A stretch of DNA of 64,000 bases from Paracoccaceae bacterium. Lineage in GTDB: Bacteria; Pseudomonadota; Alphaproteobacteria; Rhodobacterales; Rhodobacteraceae. The notes under the pieces were generated by a model, which was given only the letters and a program-made list of their open reading frames with translations, did no database searches and was not told the DNA's origin. The translations under genes were made by a program, and so were the position numbers. Shown here one piece after another: positions 6,513 to 62,843 of this stretch; position 1 is the first letter of the stretch, and every line of letters starts with the position of its first letter. Where the stretch lies: positions 787,116 to 851,115 of the forward strand of contig OZ242030.1 of assembly GCA_965205055.1 (NCBI GenBank), given 5' to 3'.

Positions 6513-7439
6513 ATGAAGATCACTGACGCGGCAAAGGGAATTCTTGCCAACTACGCGGGGGATTCGCCGGGCGTAAGGGCCAATCTGGTTCGCATCTTGA
6601 TGCATGGCGCCTTGTCCGGAACCGGCAAACTGATCATCCTGCCTGTTGACCAAGGGTTTGAGCACGGGCCGGACCGGAGCTTTCTGGTGAATGAACCCGC
6701 CTACGACCCGCACTATCACTTCGAGTTGGCAATTGAGGCAGGGCTCAGCGCCTACGCGGCTCCCCTTGGAATGATCGAATGCGGCGCCGACCGCTTCGCA
6801 GGCCAAATCCCGACGATACTGAAGGTCAACTCTTCGAATTCGCTGCTGCCCGGCGGCATGGCGAACGATCAGGCAATAACCGCGTCCGTCGATGATGCGC
6901 TGCGCCTGGGCTGTTCCGCGATCGGCTTCACGGTCTATCCGGGCTCATCGCAGTCAATGGAAATGTTCGAAGAGATCGCCGAGATTCGCGCCGAGGCGTC
7001 GGCGCACGGTCTGGCAACGGTCATTTGGTCGTACCCGCGCGGAGAAGACCTTGCCGGAAAAGCTCAGACTGCATTGGATGTAAGCGCGTACGCTGCCCAC
7101 ATTGCCGCGCTCTTGGGCGCGCACATCATCAAGATAAAGTTGCCCGAGTCTGATCTCCACATGCCCGAGACCAAGGAAAGATTGAGCGGCCAATCCGATT
7201 TGCATGACCGCTCGCGACGGGTCGCGCACTGCATGAGGGCGGCGTTCAATGGACGCCGAATTGTGGTTTTTTCGGGAGGCTCCGCGAAGACGTCCGATCA
7301 AGTTTTCGACGATGCGCAAGCAATCAGGGATGGCGGCGGCCACGGCTCAATCATCGGCAGAAATACCTTCCAGCGGCCCCGGGCGGATGCTTTGGAGATG
7401 CTGAGGAAGCTCGTCGACATCTACAGAAACGGGCAATGA
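6513..7439 (+). CDS. class I fructose-bisphosphate aldolase (DhnA/FbaB type)
   Basis: KLIILPVDQGFEHGP and HIIKIKLP motifs; it follows tkt-gap-pgk. Confidence 0.85.
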   Translation: MKITDAAKGILANYAGDSPGVRANLVRILMHGALSGTGKLIILPVDQGFEHGPDRSFLVNEPAYDPHYHFELAIEAGLSAYAAPLGMIECGADRFAGQIPTILKVNSSNSLLPGGMANDQAITASVDDALRLGCSAIGFTVYPGSSQSMEMFEEIAEIRAEASAHGLATVIWSYPRGEDLAGKAQTALDVSAYAAHIAALLGAHIIKIKLPESDLHMPETKERLSGQSDLHDRSRRVAHCMRAAFNGRRIVVFSGGSAKTSDQVFDDAQAIRDGGGHGSIIGRNTFQRPRADALEMLRKLVDIYRNGQ

Positions 7440-28127: not shown

Positions 28128-28816
28128 CAGTTCCTTGGTTCTTTGAGCCAGATAGTTTCCGATCCCCTGCCATCTCCTATCTCTACAACACGTTCAACAT
28201 GGTCGACAAGATCATAAACGGCGTATTTTACAGCAACCTCCACAAGGCTGGTTCGTCTTCTCATTTTCAGCGAGGATGGTTCCGCGCCAAGGCGAGCGAA
28301 GGTATTTTCATCTCGATAAGCAATATTTTTATTCTTTGTAAATCCGCTGTTTATCGGTGATAAATAAATTTTCTGTCCATTGGTTTTCAACAAACTTTCT
28401 GTATTCACTACCAATACGGTATTTCGGTATTTTTTGTAAATCATAAGCATCCTTTTGAGTCTTTCCTTGCAGGGGAAGAAAAAGACCATGCCGTTAAGGA
28501 TCTTGTACCAGCATGCCGGACTCATGTCTCTTGGCAGCGCTTTTCGCAATCCGTCATCGGACAAAGGCCACTGATCTCGTATCGAGACATTGTCGTGAAC
28601 GGGATGATTCAGTGCAACCCAGTCAGGACGGCGGCAAGATTCAATCTTGTATCTTGGTTCTCCCTTGTATTGAAAAAGATCGAGCAACGCAGTCGTTGAC
28701 AGCAACCCGTGCTTTCTGATCGAAGGCCAGCTACCCGGCGCAGACATATGGTAGATAAACGGGTGATTCCGTACCAACGCTTCAGCGGTTAGCATTGAGC
28801 TGCCCCACATTCGCAC
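28127..28816 (-). CDS. hypothetical protein, AT-rich, possible ADP-ribosyltransferase-like fold
   Basis: 229-aa intact ORF, visibly AT-richer than its neighbours. N-terminal HPFIYHMSAPGSWPSIRKHGLLS resembles the YH.T...SI...GLLS start of DarT-type enzymes (weak, from memory). Its stop overlaps the brnT ATG (TGATG). Confidence 0.6.
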   Translation of the reverse strand: MRMWGSSMLTAEALVRNHPFIYHMSAPGSWPSIRKHGLLSTTALLDLFQYKGEPRYKIESCRRPDWVALNHPVHDNVSIRDQWPLSDDGLRKALPRDMSPACWYKILNGMVFFFPCKERLKRMLMIYKKYRNTVLVVNTESLLKTNGQKIYLSPINSGFTKNKNIAYRDENTFARLGAEPSSLKMRRRTSLVEVAVKYAVYDLVDHVERVVEIGDGRGSETIWLKEPRN

Positions 28817-29040
28817 CTATTGCCAAGAGCGTTCATGACTTGGTCCCTCAAAAAACAACAGGCCGCCCAGCGCAGTTCAAGTTTCATGCTGCCTGAAATT
28901 CGTTTGGCGATCAAAACCGTTGTTCAATCCATTAAATCCAACCAATGCAACGCGATCAAGAGTTCACGACGATGAAGCAAGGCGCACTGCTTTCGTGTTT
29001 CGATTGCGAACTTGCCAACAGGTGAAAGATGGCGATGCGT

Positions 29041-29049
29041 CTCCGAATT
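29041..29049. repeat. target-site duplication, left copy (CTCCGAATT)
   Basis: Identical 9-mer at 30411-30419, each abutting a terminal inverted repeat. Confidence 0.85.
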
Positions 29050-29216
29050 GGGTGCATCCCATGTTTTTTGGTGAAGTGATCGCGGCGCTGCACTTCCTCC
29101 AATCGATGATTTCGTGCCTGCGGTTGTTTTCCAAGCCGCATTCGCAGAGCGCGGGGCGTTGGCTTCGGACTTCGACCAGCGGGCATCATGTCTGACCAAA
29201 TGTACGGGATGCACCC
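29050..29216 (-). mobile_element. MITE copy A (IS left end fused to last ~130 bp of the IS)
   Basis: Imperfect TIRs of about 23 bp: GGGTGCATCCCATGTTTTTTGGT / GGGTGCATCCCGTACATTTGGTC. Internal sequence is homologous to the transposase 3' end seen in remnants D, E and F. Confidence 0.8.
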
Positions 29217-29424
29217 GCCGATCCTTGGTACAGGCCAAAACCTGTCGAGCCTAGACAAACAATTGTCCGAGAGGGTTCTGTTTGCGGATGGAAGCTCATT
29301 CCGGCATTTGTTGGGCAAGCGACGCCCAAGTCAGCTCTTCAGCACAATCCTTTCGAGCAGAACCGATCTGCCGTCTACCTTCCCTGTGCGGCACGCGTGG
29401 TCATTTGTTCGGCCAATTCGGCCG

Positions 29425-29943
29425 TCATGGAGCTGCGGGCAGCCGATCTTCGACCACCACTTCAATGCGGGTCAATCGTTCGCGGATCTCGCCAATTTCG
29501 GCACGGATCTCGCCAATTTCGGCACGGATATCACCAATTTCTGCCCAGAGCTCGTCAAATTTAGCCTCGACTTTAGTCTCGAAACTTCTGAGATCTTCGC
29601 GCACGTCGCTGCGGAGTTCACTGATCTCGCCGCGAACATCTGAGATCTCGCCGCGAACGTCTGAGATCTCGCTGCGAATGGTGTCACTAAGCCAATAGAT
29701 CGCTCCCAATTGCACGGTCACCACGGCGGCGGCGGCCATGATGCCTGTCAAGACAATGACTGCCTTTGAACCAGAACTTTGCGTGGATTCCCGCGGGCGA
29801 GATTCGGCTGCAGCCACAAAGGATTTCATTGCCTTCTCGACTGAGCTGTCAACAGCCTTCTCGACGAATTCGCCAAGCGCCTTCGCGGTCTTGGGATCCA
29901 CGCCGCTTGATGTAAGCAGTTCCATCGAAGGTGCATTGGCCAT
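29425..29943 (-). CDS. heptad-repeat membrane protein (DUF1640-like by recollection)
   Basis: 172 aa: MANAPSMELLTSSGVDPKTAKALGEF..., one TM (AVIVLTGIMAAAAVVTVQLGAIYWL), then EISDVRG x3 and AEIGEIR x3 heptads. Confidence 0.7.
   Translation of the reverse strand: MANAPSMELLTSSGVDPKTAKALGEFVEKAVDSSVEKAMKSFVAAAESRPRESTQSSGSKAVIVLTGIMAAAAVVTVQLGAIYWLSDTIRSEISDVRGEISDVRGEISELRSDVREDLRSFETKVEAKFDELWAEIGDIRAEIGEIRAEIGEIRERLTRIEVVVEDRLPAAP
29485..29685 (-). repeat. two blocks of in-frame 21-bp tandem repeats inside the CDS
   Basis: GATCTCGCCAATTTCGGCACG x2 plus a degenerate third (29485-29547). GATCTCGCCGCGAACATCTGA x2 plus a degenerate third (29623-29685). Confidence 0.9.
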
Positions 29944-30244
29944 GATGGGACAATAGACGCAAGAGAGCAGGACTTCAAGACGAAATTCTGGTCGCATGCC
30001 CGCCGAGGTACTGCGCTTGCGTCGCGCATGCGCCCGCCGGGACAGAATTTCGCACAACATGGAACCCGCGACAACTTTGCCTTGACAAGCGCGCGCGCAT
30101 TTTTGAAATCCGGCACGCGCGGACGGATGCATTCGTCAACGCGAAATCCATGCGAGCCGGTTGCGCCGAATCACGTTGCCTGCCGGGATGCGGCAACGGA
30201 CTGCAGCAAGATCACGGGAATACACGACTGAGGCTTCTGGAAGC

Positions 30245-30410
30245 GGGGCGCAATCCCATGTTTTTTGATGAAGTGATTGCCCGGCATTTCCTCCAATCGA
30301 TGATTTCGGGCCTGCGATTGCTTTACAAGCCGCATTCGCGGCGAGCAGGGCGTTGGCTTCTGACTTCGATCAGCGGGCATCATGTCTGACCAAATGTACG
30401 GGATGCACCC
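30245..30410 (-). mobile_element. MITE copy B
   Basis: Collinear with copy A throughout. The inner terminus is degenerate (GGGGCGCAATCCC) and the outer terminus is perfect. Confidence 0.8.
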
Positions 30411-30419
30411 CTCCGAATT
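30411..30419. repeat. target-site duplication, right copy (CTCCGAATT)
   Basis: See 29041-29049. Confidence 0.85.
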
Positions 30420-30493
30420 TGGCAAGGTGACATTACCATCTTTTTTCCGCAAAAAGGTGGGCACATGAATCAAAGTCGGAACCAGACAAGTCC

Positions 30494-31663
30494 ATGCAGT
30501 CGCAGGTAGGCATCGTCGGAGGCGGTCCGTCCGGATTGCTGCTGGCCCGCAAGCTCGCTCTCGCCGGGATTGATGTTGTTCTGCTTGAGCGCCAATCCAG
30601 AGAGCATGTTTGCTCGCGAATACGCGCGGGCGTACTGGAGTGGGGCACCGTCGAGCAACTTAGGGAAGCAGGCGTCGGCGACCGAATGGATCAAGTCGGT
30701 CTGGTCCATGACGGTTGCTTGCTGGCTTTGGGCAATCGAACGGTGCGCTTGGACTTCGCCGGACTCGCCCGACGTTCCGTCATGGTTTACGGACAAACAG
30801 AAATCACCCATGATCTTTACGACGCGCTCAATGCCTCTGAAACACGGATTTTCCACGAGGTGCATGACGTTGAAATCCAAGGAGCCAACACGGAATCGCC
30901 AAGAATTGCTTTTCTTCATCAGAATGAAAGCAAATTGCTGCATTGCAGGTTCGTCGCCGGATGCGACGGATTCCACGGCGTGAGTCGGCAGACCATACCC
31001 AATTCGGTGCGAACGGAATACTTGAAGACATATCCGTTCGGTTGGCTCGGGCTGCTTTCCGAATCCCCGCCCGTGTCGGATGAGCTGATCTACTCGAAAA
31101 GCGCGCGCGGATTCTCATTGGCATCAATGAGAAACCGCAACCTCTCGAGATACTATATTCAAGTTCCGATCGACGACCGCGTGGAAAACTGGTCCGACAA
31201 TGACTTTTGGGACGAATTGAGACGCCGACTCCCGTCCGAATATGCCGAGTCGCTTGTTGCTGGGCGCGGAGTCGAAAAATCCATTGCGGCGTTGAGAAGC
31301 TTCGTTTCGGAACCGATGTCGTACGGATCGCTGTTTCTGTGCGGGGATGCCGCGCATATAGTTCCGCCAACCGGCGCCAAAGGTTTGAACCTCGCCGTCT
31401 CCGACGTGCATTACCTCTGCGAGGCGCTGGTGCGTTATTTCACTCACCGTGACGAAGACGGACTAAGAGAGTATTCTCCCAATGCCTTGTCGCGGGTTTG
31501 GCGCACCATGCGGTTCAGCTGGTGGATGTCGAACCTCCTGCATGTCTTTCCCGAAGCGTCTCCATTCGATGCGAAAGTCAGCGAGTCCGAATTCGACTAC
31601 TTGGCTGGCTCGGAGAATGGGCAGCGCGTCTTGGCCGAAAACTATACCGGCCTGCCCTACTGA
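30494..31663 (+). CDS. pobA: 4-hydroxybenzoate 3-monooxygenase
   Basis: VGIVGGGPSGLLLA FAD motif, CDGFHGVSR, LCGDAAHIVPPTGAKGLNLA; 389 aa. Confidence 0.92.
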   Translation: MQSQVGIVGGGPSGLLLARKLALAGIDVVLLERQSREHVCSRIRAGVLEWGTVEQLREAGVGDRMDQVGLVHDGCLLALGNRTVRLDFAGLARRSVMVYGQTEITHDLYDALNASETRIFHEVHDVEIQGANTESPRIAFLHQNESKLLHCRFVAGCDGFHGVSRQTIPNSVRTEYLKTYPFGWLGLLSESPPVSDELIYSKSARGFSLASMRNRNLSRYYIQVPIDDRVENWSDNDFWDELRRRLPSEYAESLVAGRGVEKSIAALRSFVSEPMSYGSLFLCGDAAHIVPPTGAKGLNLAVSDVHYLCEALVRYFTHRDEDGLREYSPNALSRVWRTMRFSWWMSNLLHVFPEASPFDAKVSESEFDYLAGSENGQRVLAENYTGLPY

Positions 31664-35831: not shown

Positions 35832-38188
35832 GAGTGATTCCCCCGTCAATGCCGGTTCATTGCCCTGTCGCCTTCGGGCGGTCCGCGCCCATTTACTGGG
35901 GTGGCCGATGTCCAGTGCTTGTTTTGCGGCCGGAGACCGGATTCGCTGAGAGCGGATCAAGCCAAGACCGACTTGGTCAGCTTGCTCTTCGCGGCTCAAG
36001 AAGCCTCCGCTGTCTCTTCCTCGAGAATTTCTTGAAGCGCGCTTCGGACGAGACCGAGGACACTATCAAATTTCTACTTTTAACTCGCTGATCATTCGGT
36101 ATGTCCTCATGGTTCGGCAGTGCTGTATCCGCGGCGGGAAGATCGTCCAAGCGGCCTGGAACTTCAGGATTTCGAGGAACGGCTGCTGCTTCGACCACGG
36201 ACTGGCAGACTGTCGGGTTCGGCGGAGCTTTCGACCAAAAAGCGGGATGGCAAGCAACGGCATGCCGCCGGAACAGGCTCAGCCCTCTACGGGCAATCCA
36301 AATGCTCGAATGAACCTCGCGTTGCAGATAGAACGCGCCCGGCTCAGGTTGACGCGCTTCCGGCGTTCACGAAGCAGTTCGGGCATTGTGAATCGGCATG
36401 CGTCCGGCGACGGAAAGCCTTCCTTGGAATGCCTGTTCCGGAAATGGGAACTGCCGGGCCCGGAGGGCGCGGCAGCCGGCAAGTTTTTGGGGCCGTGCCC
36501 CGGGGTCAGCCGCCGAGCCCCACCTCGACGCCGTAGCTGCCGTCTTCGCGGACGAGCGCCGCGCCGAAGCTGCCGACGATCGAAAGGTGTAGGCCGGTGG
36601 CGGCAGTGTTGCCGTCTTGGAGATACCAGATTCCGGCCGTCTCCAAGCCGGCGGGCGGTCCGTAGAAGTTCCCCCTGTAGCCTCCCTCCGCGAAAGCCGC
36701 CGGGTAAGAGGCGGGGTCTATGACGCCTTTGAACTCTCCATCCGCGCTGATGTCGGTCGCTTGGAGCGTCAGAGCGCCGGAGATCCTTGCATAGTCTTCC
36801 CAGATGCCCTTGCCGCTGCTGAAGGATTCGAGGTTCGTGATCCTTCCGCTGATCTTGTTGTCGTCCGCGGTCCCGGAAATTGTCGCGGTCAGCCGGACAT
36901 CGCCCCTCATCCTCAAATAGTTGGCGCCCGTCAGTGACGGAAAGTCGCCATGGGTCCCTATGGCTTCAATCGCAAATTGCGAGGCCATTGTCCGGCCCCT
37001 GAACGTCCCTCCGGTGATCTTGTCGGCGCCGGCGACATCCGTGGTCCTCATGCCCGCCTCGTTCTTGAACGCGTCGTAGCCCGCATGGAAGGGAAAGGTC
37101 CGCCGCCCGGGGAATATCGTGCTTCCGGTCGGTAAGCTGTCGACGAATTCCATATGCCCGTAGGCGGCGTAGGACAGGTAGTGGTTCACGTCGTCGCGCA
37201 CGTAGCCCGCCGGATCGTCCGGATTTTCGAGATTTCTGTCGAGGCCGATATGATTGGACAGCCGCATGGTGTAGGTACCCATCGCCTGACCGTTGCTGAG
37301 CTGGTTGCTGGAACCCGCCACAATCTCCCGCGACGGCATGAGCTGGGCCGTCCAGTAATGCTCGGCGTTGCCCTCGGGCGAAGCCTTCGGAAGACCGAAC
37401 TCCAGCTTCAGATCGTATCCGCCGTTCGACCCGCTGGGCAAAACAAATCGAGCGAAAGCAAAAAAGGCGTCGGGATGTCTGAAATCAAAGCCGAAAGCGC
37501 CTTTTCCGCCCATGTCCAAGACAAGCCCGCTCGGAGTGATTCTGAGCCCAGCGACGAGTCTCGGGTCCTCGCCGTCGTTTCCGCCGCCGTTGCGGTCTAC
37601 ATGGGAGCGCGAATCGTAACCGGCTCCCATAAGCAGGAACCTTCTACGATGCGAAGGTTCATTAATCATAACAGCGACCGGGATTCCCCGCATTTGCAGC
37701 AGGTCGCCGCTGCTGGCCAGGCCTGGGGACATCACGACCTTCCCGTCCTCGTACGCAACCGCCGGGATTTTCGCCGCCGTCAGCAGGGTCTCGGCGTCGG
37801 CGCCGTTCTCCCTTCGCGGATTGCGGACCACTCTCTGGAGCTCAGGCACGGGCCGGAGACTCTCCCTTCCTATGACCAGTGCGGACGCCGACCATCCCGC
37901 GCCCGCGCTGCTTTCGGCCGCGCGCAGCCTCGGGAGGTCCTCGGCTTCGGCGGCGTCCGCCTTGACGGCCAGCCTAGCCGCCTGGGCGGTCCTTTCGGAG
38001 TCGTCCGGAGGCGCCTGCAGCGCGCGGGCCGCCGCGAGGGCGTCCGTCAAAGCCTTCCGCGCGGCGGCGATGTTCGCCAGCGCCCTCGTCCGGTCGCCTC
38101 CCGTCCTGGCCGCCGCGGCTACGGCGGCCACTACCCTGCTCCGGGCTGCGGCCAGATCCGCCTCCGCTTCTTCCAGCTCGTCGTCGAA

Positions 38189-39859
38189 CGATCATGTTTC
38201 AAAAGTTCTGCAAAATGCTTTCAAAGAAGTTCGGTCATGGCAAGTCCTTGGTTTCGCTATCAACCATCCCTTGCAGGAAAGGACGACACCATGACCGGGA
38301 TGCATAGTAGATCGAAGTTGGCCGAGTTCAAGTCGGAGCTTGAGTGTGGGGGCGACGCGGTTCGCGAGCTTTTGCGTGGCATGCTTCAGGAGATTCTTGA
38401 GGAAGAGATGACCGAGGCCTTGGGCGCCGCGAAGGGCGAGCGGACGTCCGACCGTCTGGGTTATCGTTCCGGTTATTACAAGCGTCATTTGACGACGCGT
38501 GTCGGCCAGGTTGAGCTTCGCGTTCCGCAGGATCGGAACGGCGCGTTCAGCACCGAGCTGTTCGAGCGCTACGAGCGTTCGGAGAAGGCGTTCGTCTTGG
38601 CATTGATGCAGATGTATGTTCACGGGGTTTCGACCCGGAAGGTCGCGAAGGTGACGGAGGCGCTTTGCGGCCACGGTTTTTCGGCGTCGACGATCAGCCG
38701 GCTCAATGCGAAGCTGGATGCGGAGCTCGGGAAGTTCGCGGAGCGGCGTCTGGAGGGTTCGTTTCCCTATTTGATTCTGGACGCCCGCTACGAGAAGGTT
38801 CGCGAGGACGGCGTTGTCCGCGACCGCGCGGTTCTGATCGCGGTCGGGGTCGACGCGTCGGGCCGCCGACAGGTTCTCGGCGTCGAGCTGGCGGAGGGCG
38901 AGAGCCATGCGAGCTGGCGTCGGTTCCTGGAGTCTTTGAGGGATCGCGGCCTGTGCGGCGTCGTCCAGATTGTTTCGGACGACCATTCCGGCTTGACGAA
39001 GGCGATCCGGGAGGTTGTTCCGGAAGCGGTCCGCCAGCGGTGCTACGTCCATTTCCTGCGGAACGCCCGGGCCCATTTGAACTCGCGTTCGGGCGACGGC
39101 TGCCTCAAGGAGCTTCGCTGGATCTATGATCGTCCGAGCGTCGAGGAGGCTCGGCGGGATCTGGCCGCGTGGCTGGAGAAGTGGCAGGCGTCGCAGCCGA
39201 AGCTTTGCGATTGGGTCGAGGCGACGATCGAGGAGACGTTCGCGTTCCTGCGGCTTCCCCGGCAGCATCATATTCGGATGCGTTCGACGAACATGCTCGA
39301 GCGCTTGAACGAGGAGATCAAGCGGCGGACGAAGGTCGTCCGGATTTTCCCGGACGCCCGCAGCTGTCTGCGGCTTGTCCGGGCCTTGTGCGCGGAGACG
39401 CACGAGAGCTGGATGGAGGACGGCGTCCGCTATCTGGACATGGATCTTCTTCAGGAGCAGCGTCGGGCCGATCTGCGGAAGCTGGCGGCATGACGATCGC
39501 ATTCGGGGTTTTCGCCCGAGTCAATTCGCCCGGGGCGCGGCCAGCATGGAAAGCCTGTGGACAATCCCTTTGGGCGCTGTCGGCGCGCGTCCTGCTCCGG
39601 GCCGGGATTGACCACATCCTTTCCACACTTTCCGCGCCGCGCCGATCGGCCAATATGCCGGCCCGCCGCCGCTCCGATAAATGGGGTCTCCGCGGCGGCG
39701 GGCCGGCGTGGCCTCGGCGCGGGGCCGCGTCCGCCCTCCGCGGCCGGATCCGAAATGCGGAAATACGAATTCATGCCTCCGGCTTCGCCCGAGGGGCATC
39801 GAACCCGAAACCAAGTCTTGACATTCCTGATCGAAATTGCAGAACTATCGGTACACTAC
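38189..39859 (+). mobile_element. IS256-family insertion sequence
   Basis: Flanked by the 8-bp direct repeat TCGTCGAA (38181-38188 and 39860-39867). Subterminal inverted core is AGTTCTGCAA. One transposase gene, then a 366-bp non-coding tail. Confidence 0.85.
38291..39493 (+). CDS. IS256-family (Mutator-like) transposase
   Basis: MTGMHSRSKLAEFK...LTEALGAAKGERTSDRLGYRSGYY...LILDARYEKVRE...IVSDDHSGL...RSTNMLERLNEEIKRRTKVV; 400 aa. Confidence 0.93.
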   Translation: MTGMHSRSKLAEFKSELECGGDAVRELLRGMLQEILEEEMTEALGAAKGERTSDRLGYRSGYYKRHLTTRVGQVELRVPQDRNGAFSTELFERYERSEKAFVLALMQMYVHGVSTRKVAKVTEALCGHGFSASTISRLNAKLDAELGKFAERRLEGSFPYLILDARYEKVREDGVVRDRAVLIAVGVDASGRRQVLGVELAEGESHASWRRFLESLRDRGLCGVVQIVSDDHSGLTKAIREVVPEAVRQRCYVHFLRNARAHLNSRSGDGCLKELRWIYDRPSVEEARRDLAAWLEKWQASQPKLCDWVEATIEETFAFLRLPRQHHIRMRSTNMLERLNEEIKRRTKVVRIFPDARSCLRLVRALCAETHESWMEDGVRYLDMDLLQEQRRADLRKLAA

Positions 39860-40206
39860 TCGTCGAAAAACCTCTCCGCCTCGGTCCTGCCGTCCTCGGG
39901 CGGAACCGTTGTCTCGGTCTCGGGGGTCTCGGTTTCAACGGTTTCGGTATCCGGGGTTTCCGGGTCGGCTATCTCGGTCTCGGGAGAGGCGGGAGCCGGC
40001 GGATTGCCGCCGGAGCAGGCGCCGAGCGCCAGCGCCGCTGCGCAAGCCAGAGCTGCGGTCAGTTTCATGTACATGGGCGTTTCCCCGTCGGTGTCGGTTC
40101 AGTGTCTCTTTGCCTCTCGCCGCCGCATGCCCCGCCGTCCCGTCCTGAACGAGCTCCGGCGTTCGCGCCCACTGCGGCGGCCCTTTGGGCAGCCGCGAGC
40201 ATCGTA

Positions 40207-40216
40207 GGGGGGGGGG
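40207..40216. repeat. homopolymeric G10 tract
   Basis: Ten consecutive G (C10 on the gene strand), about 135-140 nt upstream of the copy-2 lipoprotein start. The homologous position in unit 1 has only GGGG. Confidence 0.9.
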
Positions 40217-40559
40217 TGATTGATGTCCAGTAGTTTTTCGCGGTCGGACACCGAATTCGCCGCCGCGGGATTCAAGCCGCATCCTCCCGGCCCGCCCGCT
40301 CTTCGCAGCGTTCGAAGCCTCCGTCGTCTCTTCCCCGGGGATCTCCCGGAGCGCGTTCTGGAATCCGGCGCTTCGACTGCGGCCCTCGCGGACCGTCCGG
40401 TTTGGCGGAGCTTCCGGCCACCCGACAGCCATGGGGCGGAACGCAGCGTCAAGTGTGTCTTATTGATAGACCGCGGACCGAGTCTTCGACGCGCTCAAGC
40501 CCGGCATTGGATCCGCTTGCTCAATGAATATGCATCCCGGCCGTCGAGTCGCGGTCGGC

Positions 40560-40860
40560 CGCGAAACTAAAAGATTTGCAATGGCCGCTTCCTCGCGAAA
40601 GCTTCTGCGGGACTTCTGAAACGCGATCCGAGGTCGTGCAGCTTTCCGCGCAACGTTACGACGTCCGGGCCTTGGGGCGGAACGCCAAGAAGCGGGCGGT
40701 CAATTCGACATCAATCCGGTCCGTCCTGGTCGCCGCGCCCCAGCTTCTCCCGAACGCCTCGGCCTGCTCTCGGCGTGATCAAGCTGCAAGGGATTCAGCG
40801 AAGAAACGCTCTGGAGAGTGCCAGCATCAAGTTGAAACAGCAGCATTTTCGTACGACCGC
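40560..40860 (-). pseudogene. IS110-family transposase fragment
   Basis: Minus-strand pieces ..LDAGTLQSVSSLNPLQLDHAES.. and ..AATRTDRIDVELTARFLAFRPKA.. (compare the ..VNP.QV..FA.. and KTDRIDA..LARF motifs) lie in different frames. Confidence 0.4.
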
Positions 40861-40927
40861 ATCGGGACCTCCGGGTGCGCGCCAACTTGAGCCGGACACG
40901 TTCCAAAATCCTTGCTCGGCCCATTGC

Positions 40928-41962
40928 TTACTTGGCATTCCTGGAAATAAGCTCTCTTGCTGTTCCTACCAGCCGAGATCCATCGATGCCCAGTTCATCG
41001 ACTTCGCTGATCCAGCGCGAAACCACCGGCTCCAGTGCGGCCTGAAACTCGGAGGTTTCAGCCTCACTGAGGACGATGTGCTCGTTCCCTGCTTCCACAG
41101 CCATGCCGATGCCAACATCGTCCGAAGCTTTCCAGATTTCACCGACTTCACCCCACCAATCACGCCCGGAGGCCTCCTTGAAGGCGAATTGGACGTCCGC
41201 GGGAAGGCTGTTCCATCTGGCCTCGTTCATGGAAACCTGAAATGTTGTCGTTCCGAAACGCGCCCCGTTGAAGCCTTCGATCTGGTATTGGGTCTGTTCG
41301 TGTATCTTGAGCGAAGGAATGATTTCCCAAGGAATGAACGCGCCGTCGACTGCCCCCTTCTGCAGCGCCTGATGAAGATCGGTGACGGGCATGGAAACGG
41401 GGCTGGCGCCCAGAGCCTCGATGCTCCATGCTCCGGTCCGCGTCGGAATCCGCATCTTCGCGCCCTTCATTTCACGAGGCGAACGGACGGCTCGATTGCG
41501 CATATGAATGCCGTGTCCTGCGTGCACATGCAGAAACATGACCTCCAGACCCGCGTATTCCTGCTCCAACTCACTTTCGAACATGTCGTAGAGCGAAAGA
41601 TTCGCGGCGACGGGATCGTTAACATAGACGAAAGGCAGCTCCATGACTTCGGTGCGCGGAAAAAGTCCCGGCGTATATCCGTTCACCGCCCAAACCAAAT
41701 CCACGACGCCTTCCCTGGCTTGGCTGACCAGCTCGGCCGGCCGGCCGCCGAGCGACATCGACGGATGGATTTCAATTGCGACCTTGCCGCCCGAGTTCTC
41801 TTCGACTTGCCTAGCCCACGGCTGCAGCATCCGCGCGTGCGCCGGAGATTGATCACTCAGCAAATGGTGCAGTTTGAACGTGTATTCTTGACCGTTTGCC
41901 GCCGATGCCGTCAGAACGCAGGCTGCCGCGAACGGAAGAATTTGTTTGATTGCGTTCACCAA
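40928..41962 (-). CDS. dctP: TRAP transporter substrate-binding protein (DctP family)
   Basis: Signal peptide plus DctP-family body. No dctQM is adjacent; the downstream sequence is an IS remnant. Confidence 0.85.
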   Translation of the reverse strand: MVNAIKQILPFAAACVLTASAANGQEYTFKLHHLLSDQSPAHARMLQPWARQVEENSGGKVAIEIHPSMSLGGRPAELVSQAREGVVDLVWAVNGYTPGLFPRTEVMELPFVYVNDPVAANLSLYDMFESELEQEYAGLEVMFLHVHAGHGIHMRNRAVRSPREMKGAKMRIPTRTGAWSIEALGASPVSMPVTDLHQALQKGAVDGAFIPWEIIPSLKIHEQTQYQIEGFNGARFGTTTFQVSMNEARWNSLPADVQFAFKEASGRDWWGEVGEIWKASDDVGIGMAVEAGNEHIVLSEAETSEFQAALEPVVSRWISEVDELGIDGSRLVGTARELISRNAK

Positions 41963-42090
41963 TGCATTGTCCTCAGACCGGTAATTCCTCGCACGTCCGA
42001 AGTTGTGCTCGCTTACCGACCGCTCCCATTGAGCGCGACCTTCCCAGGAGTCTGTCCTCAGCTCAATATATCACGCGCCTCAAAAATGAC

Positions 42091-43074
42091 TCAACGACAT
42101 TCGGTGCGAGCCGAATTCCGCAAACTGCTTGGGCGAACCTCGTATCCCGGACTTTCGGACTCTGTATCGACGATCTCGGATGGAAAGCCGGGAGCAAGAA
42201 TTTTTTCGCCGCATTTGTCCTCCAGTCTCCGAACGACGTTCGGAGACCATTCGCGCGCTCCGTATCGAGCCGCCGCGTCTTCGAACGCGAATTTGAGTAC
42301 CGGCGCAAGTTCAAGGGGAACTCTTCCTCGCTCCGCGACATCGCAGAACAAATTCAAGTCCTTCAAAACCAGATCCATCGTGAAATTTATGTTCCGGCTG
42401 CCGTTCAGTATGACTTGGCTTTCAGTTTCGTGAACGAATGAATTGCCCGACGATATGCGAATCGCTTCGTAAGTCGTTCCCAAATCCATTCCGGCTTTCT
42501 TTGCGGCCGTCAGAGCCTCGCACAAACTCACCAAATTCGCCGTCGCCAAATAGTTGGTCACGACTTTGAGAATCGAAGCGGAGCCAAGGCCGCCAGTATG
42601 CAGAATGCGGCGCCCCATCGCAGACAGCAGCGGCAGGACGTCCTTGAATACGGAACGCTCGCAACCCGCAAATATTGAAATGTTCCCGGTTGCCGCCCGA
42701 TGGCAGCCGCCCGAAACCGGGCAATCCACCGGTCGGACGCCCAATTCAGCCGCTTTCGCGCCCAGCCGTCGAACCTCGCGTTCGTCGGTGGTGCTCATCT
42801 CGCACCAGATCGTTCCGGGCCTGGCGGCCGACAGCAGTCCGCCCTCGCCTTCCACGACCGCGGCGCTTGCTTCAGGATTGGGAAGACAGGTTACGGCGAC
42901 ATCGCACCGCGCCGCCAAGTCGCCGACGCTCTTGGCTGCCATGGCTCCCTGAGCAGCAAGTTCATCCACCTTCGCCGCATCGAGATCGTGCGCCATTAGC
43001 TCAAAGCCATTCCGCAACGCGCTCCCGGCGAGCTTGCCTCCAACATTTCCCAGACCGATGAATCCGACTCTCAT
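42091..43074 (-). CDS. NAD(P)-dependent beta-hydroxyacid dehydrogenase (3-hydroxyisobutyrate dehydrogenase family)
   Basis: MRVGFIGLGNVGG Rossmann motif and the 6PGDH-like C-terminal domain. Confidence 0.85.
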   Translation of the reverse strand: MRVGFIGLGNVGGKLAGSALRNGFELMAHDLDAAKVDELAAQGAMAAKSVGDLAARCDVAVTCLPNPEASAAVVEGEGGLLSAARPGTIWCEMSTTDEREVRRLGAKAAELGVRPVDCPVSGGCHRAATGNISIFAGCERSVFKDVLPLLSAMGRRILHTGGLGSASILKVVTNYLATANLVSLCEALTAAKKAGMDLGTTYEAIRISSGNSFVHETESQVILNGSRNINFTMDLVLKDLNLFCDVAERGRVPLELAPVLKFAFEDAAARYGAREWSPNVVRRLEDKCGEKILAPGFPSEIVDTESESPGYEVRPSSLRNSARTECR

Positions 43075-53999: not shown

Positions 54000-54803
54000 A
54001 TGAATGAATTTAAGCGTATGGTCCGACTTGCGCTCGCCGCTGTTGCAATATCGGTCGGCGCATTGGAAGCATCGGCCACCACATTTACAAACATTGAAGA
54101 TCCGCCGCTGCACGAGGCGGCTTCTGCAGGGGATGAAGTTGAAGTGCTTGCGCTGCTTGAAGTCGGCACTGATCCGAACGCCGTGGACTTTTTTGGCTAC
54201 ACGCCGCTGCATGTGGCGGCAAGGGACGGGCACGCCGACGTTGCGATTGCGCTGCTGGAAGCGGGTGCCGACCCGAACGCCGTGCCAGTGGATAGGCCAC
54301 GGTGGCTATTGTCGGGCAACTCGGAGCGAACTCCGCTGCATACGGCGTCAAGGGGCGGGCACGCCGGCGTTGCGATTGTGCTGCTGGAAGCAGGTGCCGA
54401 CCCGAACGCCGAGGACGAGTCAGACCGAACTCCGCTGTTTTGGGCGGCAAGTTACGGAGACGCCGGCATTGCGACTGCGCTGCTTAAGGCGGACGCAAGC
54501 CCGAACGCCGAGGACACCTCGGGCATCACGCCGCTGCACTTGGCCGCAAGGAAGGGATACGCTGGCGTTGTGAAACTGCTTCTCGAGGCCGGCGCGAACC
54601 CGAATGACAAGGACAATGACGGCTGGACGCCGCTGCACGCGGCGGGAATCAACGGAGAAGCCAGAGTCGAGCAAATGCTGCTGGCCGCAGGCGGTGATCC
54701 GAACATCGGACGCGAAGCGAGATTAGCCTACGATCGGTGGCTGGCTGAAGAGGCGGAGAAACTGTGGCATGACATAGAGCGGCGATCTCCGGCCGAGCAA
54801 TGA
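54000..54803 (+). CDS. secreted ankyrin-repeat protein
   Basis: Signal peptide MNEFKRMVRLALAAVAISVGALEASA followed by 6-7 ANK repeats (TPLH.AA..GH..VA..LLEAGADPNA). Near-identical internal DNA repeats occur at about 54228-54280 and 54358-54410. Confidence 0.88.
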   Translation: MNEFKRMVRLALAAVAISVGALEASATTFTNIEDPPLHEAASAGDEVEVLALLEVGTDPNAVDFFGYTPLHVAARDGHADVAIALLEAGADPNAVPVDRPRWLLSGNSERTPLHTASRGGHAGVAIVLLEAGADPNAEDESDRTPLFWAASYGDAGIATALLKADASPNAEDTSGITPLHLAARKGYAGVVKLLLEAGANPNDKDNDGWTPLHAAGINGEARVEQMLLAAGGDPNIGREARLAYDRWLAEEAEKLWHDIERRSPAEQ

Positions 54804-54837
54804 CGTCGCTCGGCAATTGCCAAGCGCGACCGTCAGG

Positions 54838-55073
54838 CGCGGGCGCTGCGACCTCCATCGGAAACGAGGGTTGCCGGTCGGGTTCGGCATTTTGGAAAGC
54901 TCCTGCAAGCGCATCATCGGGAATCGATTCAAGCAGGCGGGGCGCCGCCGGTCTAGAGCGGGCGCCAACGCCCTGCTCGCCGCCGACTGCTTTGAAAACG
55001 CCTGTCGGTACGACTTTCATGACTGAGGTGCTGGCCGCACAGCAGCCGCCTGAACAAAAAATGGGATGCACCC
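54838..55073 (+). mobile_element. 3'-terminal remnant (copy E) of ISKra4-like IS
   Basis: Encodes ..KRGLPVGFGILESSCKRIIGNRFKQAGRRRSRAGANALLAADCFENACRYDFHD* and ends AAAAAATGGGATGCACCC. Confidence 0.6.
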
Positions 55074-61719: not shown

Positions 61720-61956
61720 GATGCATTGCAGCATCTGCTGGAAACGCGGATTGTCGTTCGGAGTCGGCGTCGAGGAAAGCGTTCGCAAGCAGATATGCGG
61801 CAGCCGATTCAAATGGCGGCGAGTCGTTGGTCGAAATTTTGCGCCAATGCCTTGCTCGCCCTCAAGTGCTGCTTCGAAAACAACCCGAGGCCCAAAATCA
61901 TCGATTGGATGGATTGCAGCGCAGCCGCCGCCTGACCAGAAGTAATGGGACGCCCC
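61720..61956 (+). mobile_element. 3'-terminal remnant (copy D) of ISKra4-like IS
   Basis: ..WKRGLSFGVGVEESVRKQICGSRFK.. (frameshift) ..RWSKFCANALLALKCCFENNPRPKIIDW.., ending AATGGGACGCCCC. Confidence 0.6.
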
Positions 61957-62212
61957 GATTGCCCGACCAGGAAAAATTCCTTGCGCGCTTGGACCGAACG
62001 GATGGGCCGCGCGACGACACGTCCAAGCTCGAGAACGCCGCGCAAGCTGTCGTCTTCCGCGCCGAGCCTTTGCGAAAAAAAACGGATGGACGGCCAGCGC
62101 GAAGCGATATAGAGTGCGGAAATATGAAGCGGCCATTCGCGCCGAATGGTTCGGCGATGCGGCGTCCGGCCCGATGCGCGCCTGATGAACTTGTTGCGAC
62201 GGGAATTGGGCG

Positions 62213-62681: not shown

Positions 62682-62843
62682 GGGCGCATCCCGATTTTTT
62701 GGTCAATCGATTGCGGCGCGGCAATCTTCTCCAATCGATGATTTCGCGCCTGCGGCTGGTTTCCAAGCGGCATTCGAGGCGAGCAGGGCGTCGGCTTTCG
62801 ATGGGCGGCATCCCGCGCGACCGAAAATTATGCGATGCGTCCC
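62682..62843 (-). mobile_element. MITE copy C
   Basis: Collinear with copies A and B. Termini are GGGCGCATCCC and GCGATGCGTCCC. It lies 43 nt upstream of the lipB ATG. Confidence 0.75.

Follow-up and report, generated by a model that had tools for sequence, protein, structure and literature searches.

How did a small gene for a membrane-anchored coiled-coil protein come to stand, with no transposase gene beside it, between two MITEs (miniature inverted-repeat transposable elements) in the intergenic region that separates a DUF7002 gene from pobA? The question is raised by a 64,000-nucleotide stretch of DNA of a Paracoccaceae bacterium (assembly GCA_965205055.1, contig OZ242030.1, positions 787,116 to 851,115), hereafter the window. 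The MITE-gene-MITE unit (29050-30410, 1,361 bp) is probably a non-autonomous composite transposon bounded by MITEs: it has paired MITEs, outward-facing inverted repeats (IRs), a target duplication around the whole unit only and no transposase, and a relative carries the empty site. Related loci from other genomes and metagenome contigs are referred to below by L numbers.

Structure of the unit upstream of pobA

The two MITEs, M1 and M2, are in direct orientation and 88.8-90% identical over ~165 bp. The outermost 11 nt of the unit, GGGTGCATCCC on the left and GGGATGCACCC on the right (Table 1), are complementary at 11/11 bases, in agreement with the original prediction, made from this sequence alone; the unit ends in ...CCC, and beyond the perfect bases the IR extends imperfectly to ~25 nt, as judged by eye. 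The inner IR of M1 is perfect, while that of M2 is degenerate (GGGCGCAATCCC). The limits first given for M1 stood, as did the direct orientation, but M2 starts at 30247 instead of 30245. As had also been proposed, identical 9-mers flank the unit as a whole and neither MITE alone: M1 lies between CTCCGAATT and GCCGATCCT, M2 between CTGGAAGCG and CTCCGAATT. The chance of a 9/9 match between the unit flanks is 4.8e-6, and only one of 62,621 window positions, namely the unit's flank, has a 9-mer that recurs at +1370.

The only conserved open reading frame (ORF) inside the unit encodes a coiled-coil protein of 172 aa, and the single coding sequence (CDS) of that length described earlier was confirmed on the minus strand. 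Promoter, terminator and Rfam scans of 28800-30600 gave nothing above chance. The promoter-like box TTGAAG-17-TATTGT has 8/12 matches, under the threshold of the promoter scan; as it abuts the ATG, a leaderless mRNA for the 172-aa gene is possible. Across all paralogous loci, conservation of the 208-bp spacer 3' of the gene matches that of the CDS; the spacer contains small hairpins (e.g., GACAGGCCAAAACCTGTC) and has no Rfam match. Matches to the IR at 40075 and 25392, obtained with a loose regular expression, were judged to be chance.

An unoccupied site and the age of the insertion

The original prediction had proposed a search for an empty site upstream of pobA, and one was found in L009 (PobA 86% identical), where the DUF7002 gene and pobA are adjacent, without MITEs and without the coiled-coil gene. 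One contiguous 64-column alignment with the window over the junction takes in the left flank, a single equivalent of the 9-mer (ATTCGAGGT) and the right flank (..AAGGTGACATT..); for the left flank alone, the observed alignment score was reached by 4/1000 shuffles. On this alignment, L009 is an unoccupied site with a single diverged copy of the 9-mer, and because its spacer is uninterrupted, the 9-mer is host target DNA. At the end of the other MITE copies compared, CTCCGAATT is never present. Two independent MITE insertions around a resident gene, with 9-mers that match by chance, would have nothing in their favor beyond the frequent siting of these MITEs near gene starts, whereas in L009 neither the gene nor the MITEs are present and the interior of the unit is paralogous to a gene at another conserved locus (see below); the contiguity of the L009 flanks and the chance figure for the 9-mer refute this explanation, which is scarcely credible.

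In L008 (PobA 90% identical), homology to the window resumes exactly at 30411 (CTCTGAAGT). The same DUF7002-pobA spacer there holds, in place of the unit, a gene for a 633-aa lipoprotein-like protein without a Pfam domain (L008:2517-4418); this gene was considered as the parent insertion sequence (IS) and ruled out by its lipoprotein-like N-terminus and the absence of IRs. It seems that this spacer is a hot spot where genes are gained.

The complete unit is present in the same-species metagenome contigs L005-L007 (97.5-98% identical) and in L017, a 1.4-Mb contig (88% identical) in which the flanking 9-mers are CTCCGAATT and TTCCGAATT. As far as the sequences can tell, this shared occupancy shows that the insertion predates the split from a lineage now ~12% diverged and has been vertically inherited since. 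Exact-protein look-ups for the PobA and DUF7002 proteins of the window found none on record. Between the window and L017, identity is 89% in the flanks, 88% in the CDS, 87% in the spacer, 86% in the X region upstream of the gene, 82% in M1, and 76% in M2, and the MITEs, which are not conserved, are therefore considered to be decaying. The inner IR of M2, degenerate in the window, is intact in L017, and the outer IR of M1 is degenerate in L017. In the window species, M1 and M2 agree fully over their last 47 nt and have derived states there that are absent from L017, which indicates a putative recent partial homogenisation of the two MITEs by gene conversion. The IRs are decaying, and as no autonomous IS was found in the sequences searched, the unit is most likely a fossil, old and probably immobile.

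The right end of the unit lies 16 nt upstream of GTGACA (30427-30432), inside the block AAGGTGACATT, invariant in all relatives. For TnGBS-type elements, insertion 15-17 bp upstream of -35 boxes has been described (PMC3942029). Since the other MITE copies have no consistent distance to such a box, this is only a hint that the insertion was targeted upstream of a promoter-like hexamer at pobA.

Table 1. Features of the unit upstream of pobA and of related elements in the window.
Feature	Coordinates	Strand	Remarks
Left copy of the 9-bp target-site duplication, CTCCGAATT	29041-29049	none	Kept in L005-L007 and L017; single counterpart in the empty site of L009
MITE M1, 167 bp	29050-29216	+	Outer IR 29050-29060, inner IR 29206-29216; body read as decayed transposase C-terminus on the minus strand
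Spacer 3' of the gene, non-coding, 208 bp	29217-29424	-	81-87% conserved in all paralogous copies
CDS, 172 aa	29425-29943	-	N-terminal helix, one transmembrane (TM) segment (~residues 61-84), C-terminal heptad coiled coil partly from 21-bp tandem repeats
43 bp upstream of the start codon, with weak promoter-like TTGAAG-17-TATTGT	29944-29986	-	Conserved in all copies
X region, upstream, 260 bp	29987-30246	-	Homologous to the sequence upstream of the dnaJ-like/bolA-locus gene; 76-78% to L011/L012, 86% to L017
MITE M2, 164 bp	30247-30410	+	Degenerate inner IR 30247-30258, outer IR 30400-30410; in position the counterpart of the donor-like locus's MITE_B
Right copy of the 9-bp target-site duplication, CTCCGAATT	30411-30419	none	Ends 74 nt before the pobA ATG; TTCCGAATT in L017
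Second 3'-end fragment of the parent IS	54804-55073	+	IR at 55063-55073
M4, 3'-end fragment of the parent IS	61740-61957 (left end approximate)	+	Transposase C-terminus remnant ...RWSKFCANALLALKCCFENN...; IR tip at 61957
118-aa coiled-coil protein with C-terminal TM segment	62213-62569	+	Between M4 and M3
M3, diverged full MITE of the same family	62682-62833	+	Just upstream of lipB

The parent insertion sequence

Three further relatives of the element are present in the window, namely M3, M4 and a fragment ending at 55073. M4 and the latter fragment can be read as the 3' end of a transposase gene (M4 peptide ...GVEESVRKQICGSRFK / AASRWSKFCANALLALKCCFENNPRPKIIDWMDCSAAAA, followed by a stop). 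In tblastn searches of plasmids with the remnant peptides, the matches were weak (E 0.02-3) and every one lay at the extreme C-terminus of a transposase. Half of the best records (7/14) were annotated as ISKra4-family transposase, and the best match is itself ISKra4-like (191 bits on NF033572, model positions 113-422 of 422). In alignments with the final ~60 residues of ISKra4-family transposases, the remnant peptides are 34-37% identical to them and have the motif IGSGAxESxxKxxIxxRxKxxGxRWSKxGAxxLLxLR in common with them. We hold with moderate confidence that the MITE body is the decayed C-terminus of an ISKra4-family (Mutator-like) transposase. The 9-bp duplication fits this assignment, since the ISKra4 and p-MULT Mutator-like families make direct repeats of 8-9 bp and have IRs of 18-39 bp with a terminal C; several ISKra4 members insert upstream of sigma-A promoters, and some carry extra genes of unknown function (PMC3942029).

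A tblastn search with an ISKra4 transposase recovered the M4 remnant only, plasmids gave no match for the unit (blastn) or for the peptide of the 55-kb remnant (tblastn), and a word-index homologue search with the 62-aa transposase remnant yielded no candidates. Scans of JGI metagenomes with two MITE patterns gave 0 matches and then 26, all spurious. The 55-kb fragment directly follows an ankyrin-repeat gene (54000-54803). A mini-MITE of the same family, ~65 bp long and made up of two IRs with almost no body, is present in L008 (8090-8160).

Origin of the unit and its paralogous copies

Homologues of the gene occur in L010, L011, and L012 in the conserved synteny cobT-cobS-dnaJ-like-gene-bolA-gatB. 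L010 belongs to the Paracoccaceae metagenome-assembled genome (MAG) CBDBBY01, which is 92-94% identical to the window elsewhere. The order at this donor-like locus is MITE_A, Z (375 bp), spacer, gene, X region, a 59-bp hairpin segment and MITE_B, with the MITEs in direct orientation; L010 and L011 have the full order from MITE_A to MITE_B, and L012 keeps a remnant of MITE_B. The unit in the window has the same order minus Z and minus the hairpin segment, and M2 shares position, junction and diagnostic bases with MITE_B. Since CCGGAAGCG-type repeats flank the hairpin segment, its loss by slippage deletion is plausible. The cobS/dnaJ-like/bolA locus thus looks like the source arrangement. The view of L012 as an empty site for MITE_B was ruled out: it retains a 13-nt IR footprint and is therefore a deletion derivative. 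The spacer of the bolA-locus copy in L010 has received an IS630-family element with a 316-aa DDE_3 transposase (L010:5541-6760, the same region as L001:211-1432).

A third locus is represented by L003 in the MAG and its orthologues L015 and L016. L003 and L015 share with the pobA copy the exact junction of M1 and spacer, diagnostic MITE bases and the protein motif VEKAVG(K/R)AM; the L003-type locus has lost its outer IR and the right part. The pobA site, at the least, appears to have received the composite by transposition, and the L003-type site probably did so as well. Several observations can be added on the L003 copy. It is bracketed by a 285-bp direct repeat, 92% identical (L003:4796-5080 and 6734-7017), its left IR is truncated, and an extra IR, GGGCGCATCCCATTTTC, lies 8 nt upstream of the -35-like box of the gene. 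An assignment of its right-hand flank as IS256-like is unsupported, the related window ORFs being without a Pfam family. Window positions 38190-38459 are 88% identical to DNA beside the L003 copy in the relative, and the large ORFs that form a block at 36100-42450, which include ones of 541, 436, and 552 aa, have no Pfam family.

Comparison of these loci shows how two MITEs from an ISKra4-family IS would have come to lie on either side of a small chromosomal gene whose native place was the bolA locus, in a source locus that resembled the cobT to gatB arrangement of the relatives. Transposase of the parent IS, supplied in trans, would then have used the outermost IRs, that is, the left end of M1 and the right end of M2, and the MITE-gene-MITE stretch would have moved as one piece into the DUF7002-pobA region, making the 9-bp target duplication. 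Because the source-type locus retains a copy, the mode was probably copy-out/paste-in, as in the IS256 and TnGBS relatives.

The identical final structure would result if a solo MITE had inserted with a 9-bp duplication and a MITE with gene DNA, for example as a circle, had later recombined into the resident MITE, the composite itself never having transposed. The direct repeats MITE_A and MITE_B at the donor-like locus could pop out such a circle, and the mosaic similarity of M1 and M2, with its identical 47-nt tract, is in line with recombination. However, none of the three paralogous loci has been lost, although pop-out would remove the donor copy, and MITE copies of 78-84% identity are a poor substrate for homologous recombination. 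The 47-nt identity, not shared by L017, is confined to the window species and thus arose after the insertion, and a solo-MITE intermediate is found in none of the relatives: L008 and L009 have no MITE at this position, and L005-L007 and L017 have the full unit. This two-step history is unlikely. Transposition of the MITE-gene-MITE stretch as one unit, which the original prediction had put forward as the simplest reading, is supported by the empty site of L009, the family-typical 9-bp duplication, the donor-like locus and the restriction of the 9-mer to this unit. None of the three findings that had been named beforehand as fatal to it was made: the gene was not seen at this locus without MITEs, the 9-mer is not part of the termini of other copies, and the interior is not a non-coding fragment of the IS.

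The cargo gene

The mechanical ORF extends to 235 aa, but the homologues start at MAN..., which gives the 172-aa protein. The protein family is small, with 33 proteins in 5.8 billion by word-index search; a full profile search gave 13 representatives at E <= 1e-30, and past ~E = 1e-23 the matches cover the coiled coil only. Because intact ORFs are conserved at each of three paralogous loci and none of the indels among nine copies breaks the frame, the cargo is, on these comparisons, a real gene, and the ratio of non-synonymous to synonymous substitution rates (dN/dS) is 0.21 within the species. Many of the indels are 21-bp heptad units, the number of which differs even among L005, L006, and L007. 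Tandem repeats of 21 bp in the CDS (29483-29545 and 29620-29680) encode the heptads AEIGEIR and EISDVRG; L006 has one extra unit and L017 two fewer.

In the AlphaFold model (mean predicted local distance difference test (pLDDT) score 71), residues 17-47 form a helix, which is followed by a disordered linker and by a single helix from 58 to 167 in which the TM segment lies. The cargo gene, which has a short upstream region of its own, is predicted to encode a protein that spans the membrane once and bears a long, acidic coiled coil with a varying number of heptads, and the positive-inside rule weakly favors an N-in/C-out topology, with low confidence. Searches of Pfam, NCBIfam, PDB, and AlphaFold with the 172-aa protein gave generic coiled-coil or amphipathic-helix signals only: CCDC90-like/DUF1640 (PF07798) reached 27.5 bits against a Pfam gathering cut-off of 33.5 and covered the coiled coil only, and the PDB profile search returned apolipoprotein-type repeats only.

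Evidence that weighs against the composite

Several observations speak against the reading of the unit as a transposed composite with a real gene as cargo. No intact transposase with the termini of the unit is present in the window, the 17 related loci, the plasmids or the JGI metagenomes, so the search for an autonomous IS that the original prediction had suggested came back empty there, and mobilisation in trans is therefore inferred. The ISKra4 assignment combines individual tblastn matches with weak E-values (0.02-3) with a consistent position and motif. Because Z and the hairpin segment differ, the unit could be derived from the donor-like locus only by way of two deletions or through an intermediate that was not seen. 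The similarity between M1 and M2 exceeds that of either to MITE_A or MITE_B; it is put down to gene conversion, but other histories would fit it as well. With regard to the cargo, dN/dS between the paralogues is high (0.55-0.9), and the frame of the orthologue in L017 (L017:4874-5390) is open but for one in-frame TGA (VDS*VEKAVG), which is either a recent pseudogene mutation or an error in the 12.8x long-read assembly; given both, the cargo may be dispensable.

A second coiled-coil cassette

The original prediction had described a second gene of similar type at 62.2 kb as bounded by ends of the same IS. The gene, for a 118-aa protein, indeed lies between the M4 fragment and M3; however, an outward-facing left IR is absent, and the cassette is therefore not a transposable composite. 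The 118-aa protein has no detectable homology to the 172-aa protein. A homologue of 93 aa is encoded in the MAG (CBDBBY010000001.1) in a second MITE-gene-MITE unit, L002:597-1570, whose two full MITEs have an inverted internal orientation; the 9-mers on either side of it, CTTGGATTC and CTTGGCTGC, agree at 7/9 positions and are possibly a decayed 9-bp duplication. A third copy of the 118-aa-type gene is located beside gatB, with an IS-end remnant upstream.

Such associations would be expected if the coiled-coil genes were accessory or passenger genes of an ancestral ISKra4-type transposon, or beneficial to the element, and the units its deletion derivatives. In the 4.9-Mb genome of a relative, all five MITE copies that match the pattern (5/5) adjoin an X-type or Y-type coiled-coil gene, L002 holds a second MITE-gene-MITE unit, with the other gene type and similar flanking 9-mers, and extra genes occur in some ISKra4 elements (PMC3942029). 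Yet what stands at each end of a unit is a complete MITE with both IRs rather than a single IS end, homology between the two gene types is absent, and a transposase-linked copy was not seen among the sequences compared. The gene stands, moreover, in conserved chromosomal synteny (cobS/dnaJ-like/bolA) in several species, and the evolution of the MITEs is no slower than that of neutral spacer (76-82% vs. 89% for the flanks). We consider such a functional link very improbable. It is likewise a quite doubtful proposition that, in this Paracoccaceae clade, small genes for membrane-anchored coiled-coil proteins (two unrelated types, at least six loci) are recurrently and selectively duplicated by means of ISKra4-derived MITE pairs. 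If it were true, a functional tie would follow: the proteins would serve the element, or the MITE format would be selected to vary the copy number and heptad length of envelope proteins.

Comparison with known systems

The non-autonomous composite transposon has several counterparts. The original prediction knew of no described class of MITE-mobilised cassettes with this type of protein; this view does not stand, as MITE-bounded composites are known. In TIME-COMPs, pairs of Tn3-derived MITEs in direct or inverted orientation bracket host DNA without a transposase, and transposition has been shown experimentally (Szuplewska et al., 2014, PMC4133298; also PMC13367494); TIME-COMP1 carries a chromosomal gene of unknown function (PMC4133298). 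Both have two non-autonomous MITEs and no transposase, and in both the whole unit moves, or in the pobA case probably moved, with the target duplication typical of the parent family. TIME-COMPs have a Tn3 parent, a 5-bp duplication and 38-bp IRs and are plasmid-borne, whereas the pobA unit has an ISKra4-like parent and a 9-bp duplication and is chromosomal, and its mobility is deduced from the duplication and the empty site. In Acinetobacter, pairs of a 439-bp MITE around class 1 integrons, and MITE-297, lie between direct target repeats and were read as trans-mobilised (PMC3934969, PMC6382973). They have the same order of MITE, cargo and MITE between direct target repeats, but their cargo is a resistance integron or a mer region, the repeats are 5 bp and the units are recent and on plasmids, whereas the pobA unit is old and vertically inherited and has one small gene as cargo.

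Mobile insertion cassettes (MICs, e.g., MIC231) hold a passenger gene without a transposase between a single pair of IS ends and are mobilised in trans. The pobA unit resembles them in its transposase-less passenger gene bounded by IS-type ends, but at each of its ends a complete MITE with two IRs stands in place of one IS end. In classical IS-bounded composite transposons (Tn5, Tn10), the outer ends of two flanking elements are used; the logic of the outer ends is alike, but the flanking elements of the pobA unit encode no transposase. With the ISKra4 group of p-MULT4 these elements share 8-9 bp duplications, the C-terminal transposase motif and perhaps IRs ending in C (Guerillot et al., 2014, PMC3942029), while here MITEs and 3'-end fragments only are found, without a transposase gene. 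In the literature collection searched, no paper was found to describe ISKra4-derived MITE composites.

Significance

Gene capture of this kind is already known, and the locus opens no new mechanism or long-standing question. It would provide a natural example of how non-autonomous elements capture and duplicate an ordinary chromosomal gene, and it suggests that MITE composites can arise from the Mutator-like (ISKra4) family and not only from Tn3-type MITEs. It also draws attention to a tiny, clade-restricted family of membrane coiled-coil proteins in which the number of heptads varies between strains, and suggests that a captured gene can persist for a long time as a paralogue.

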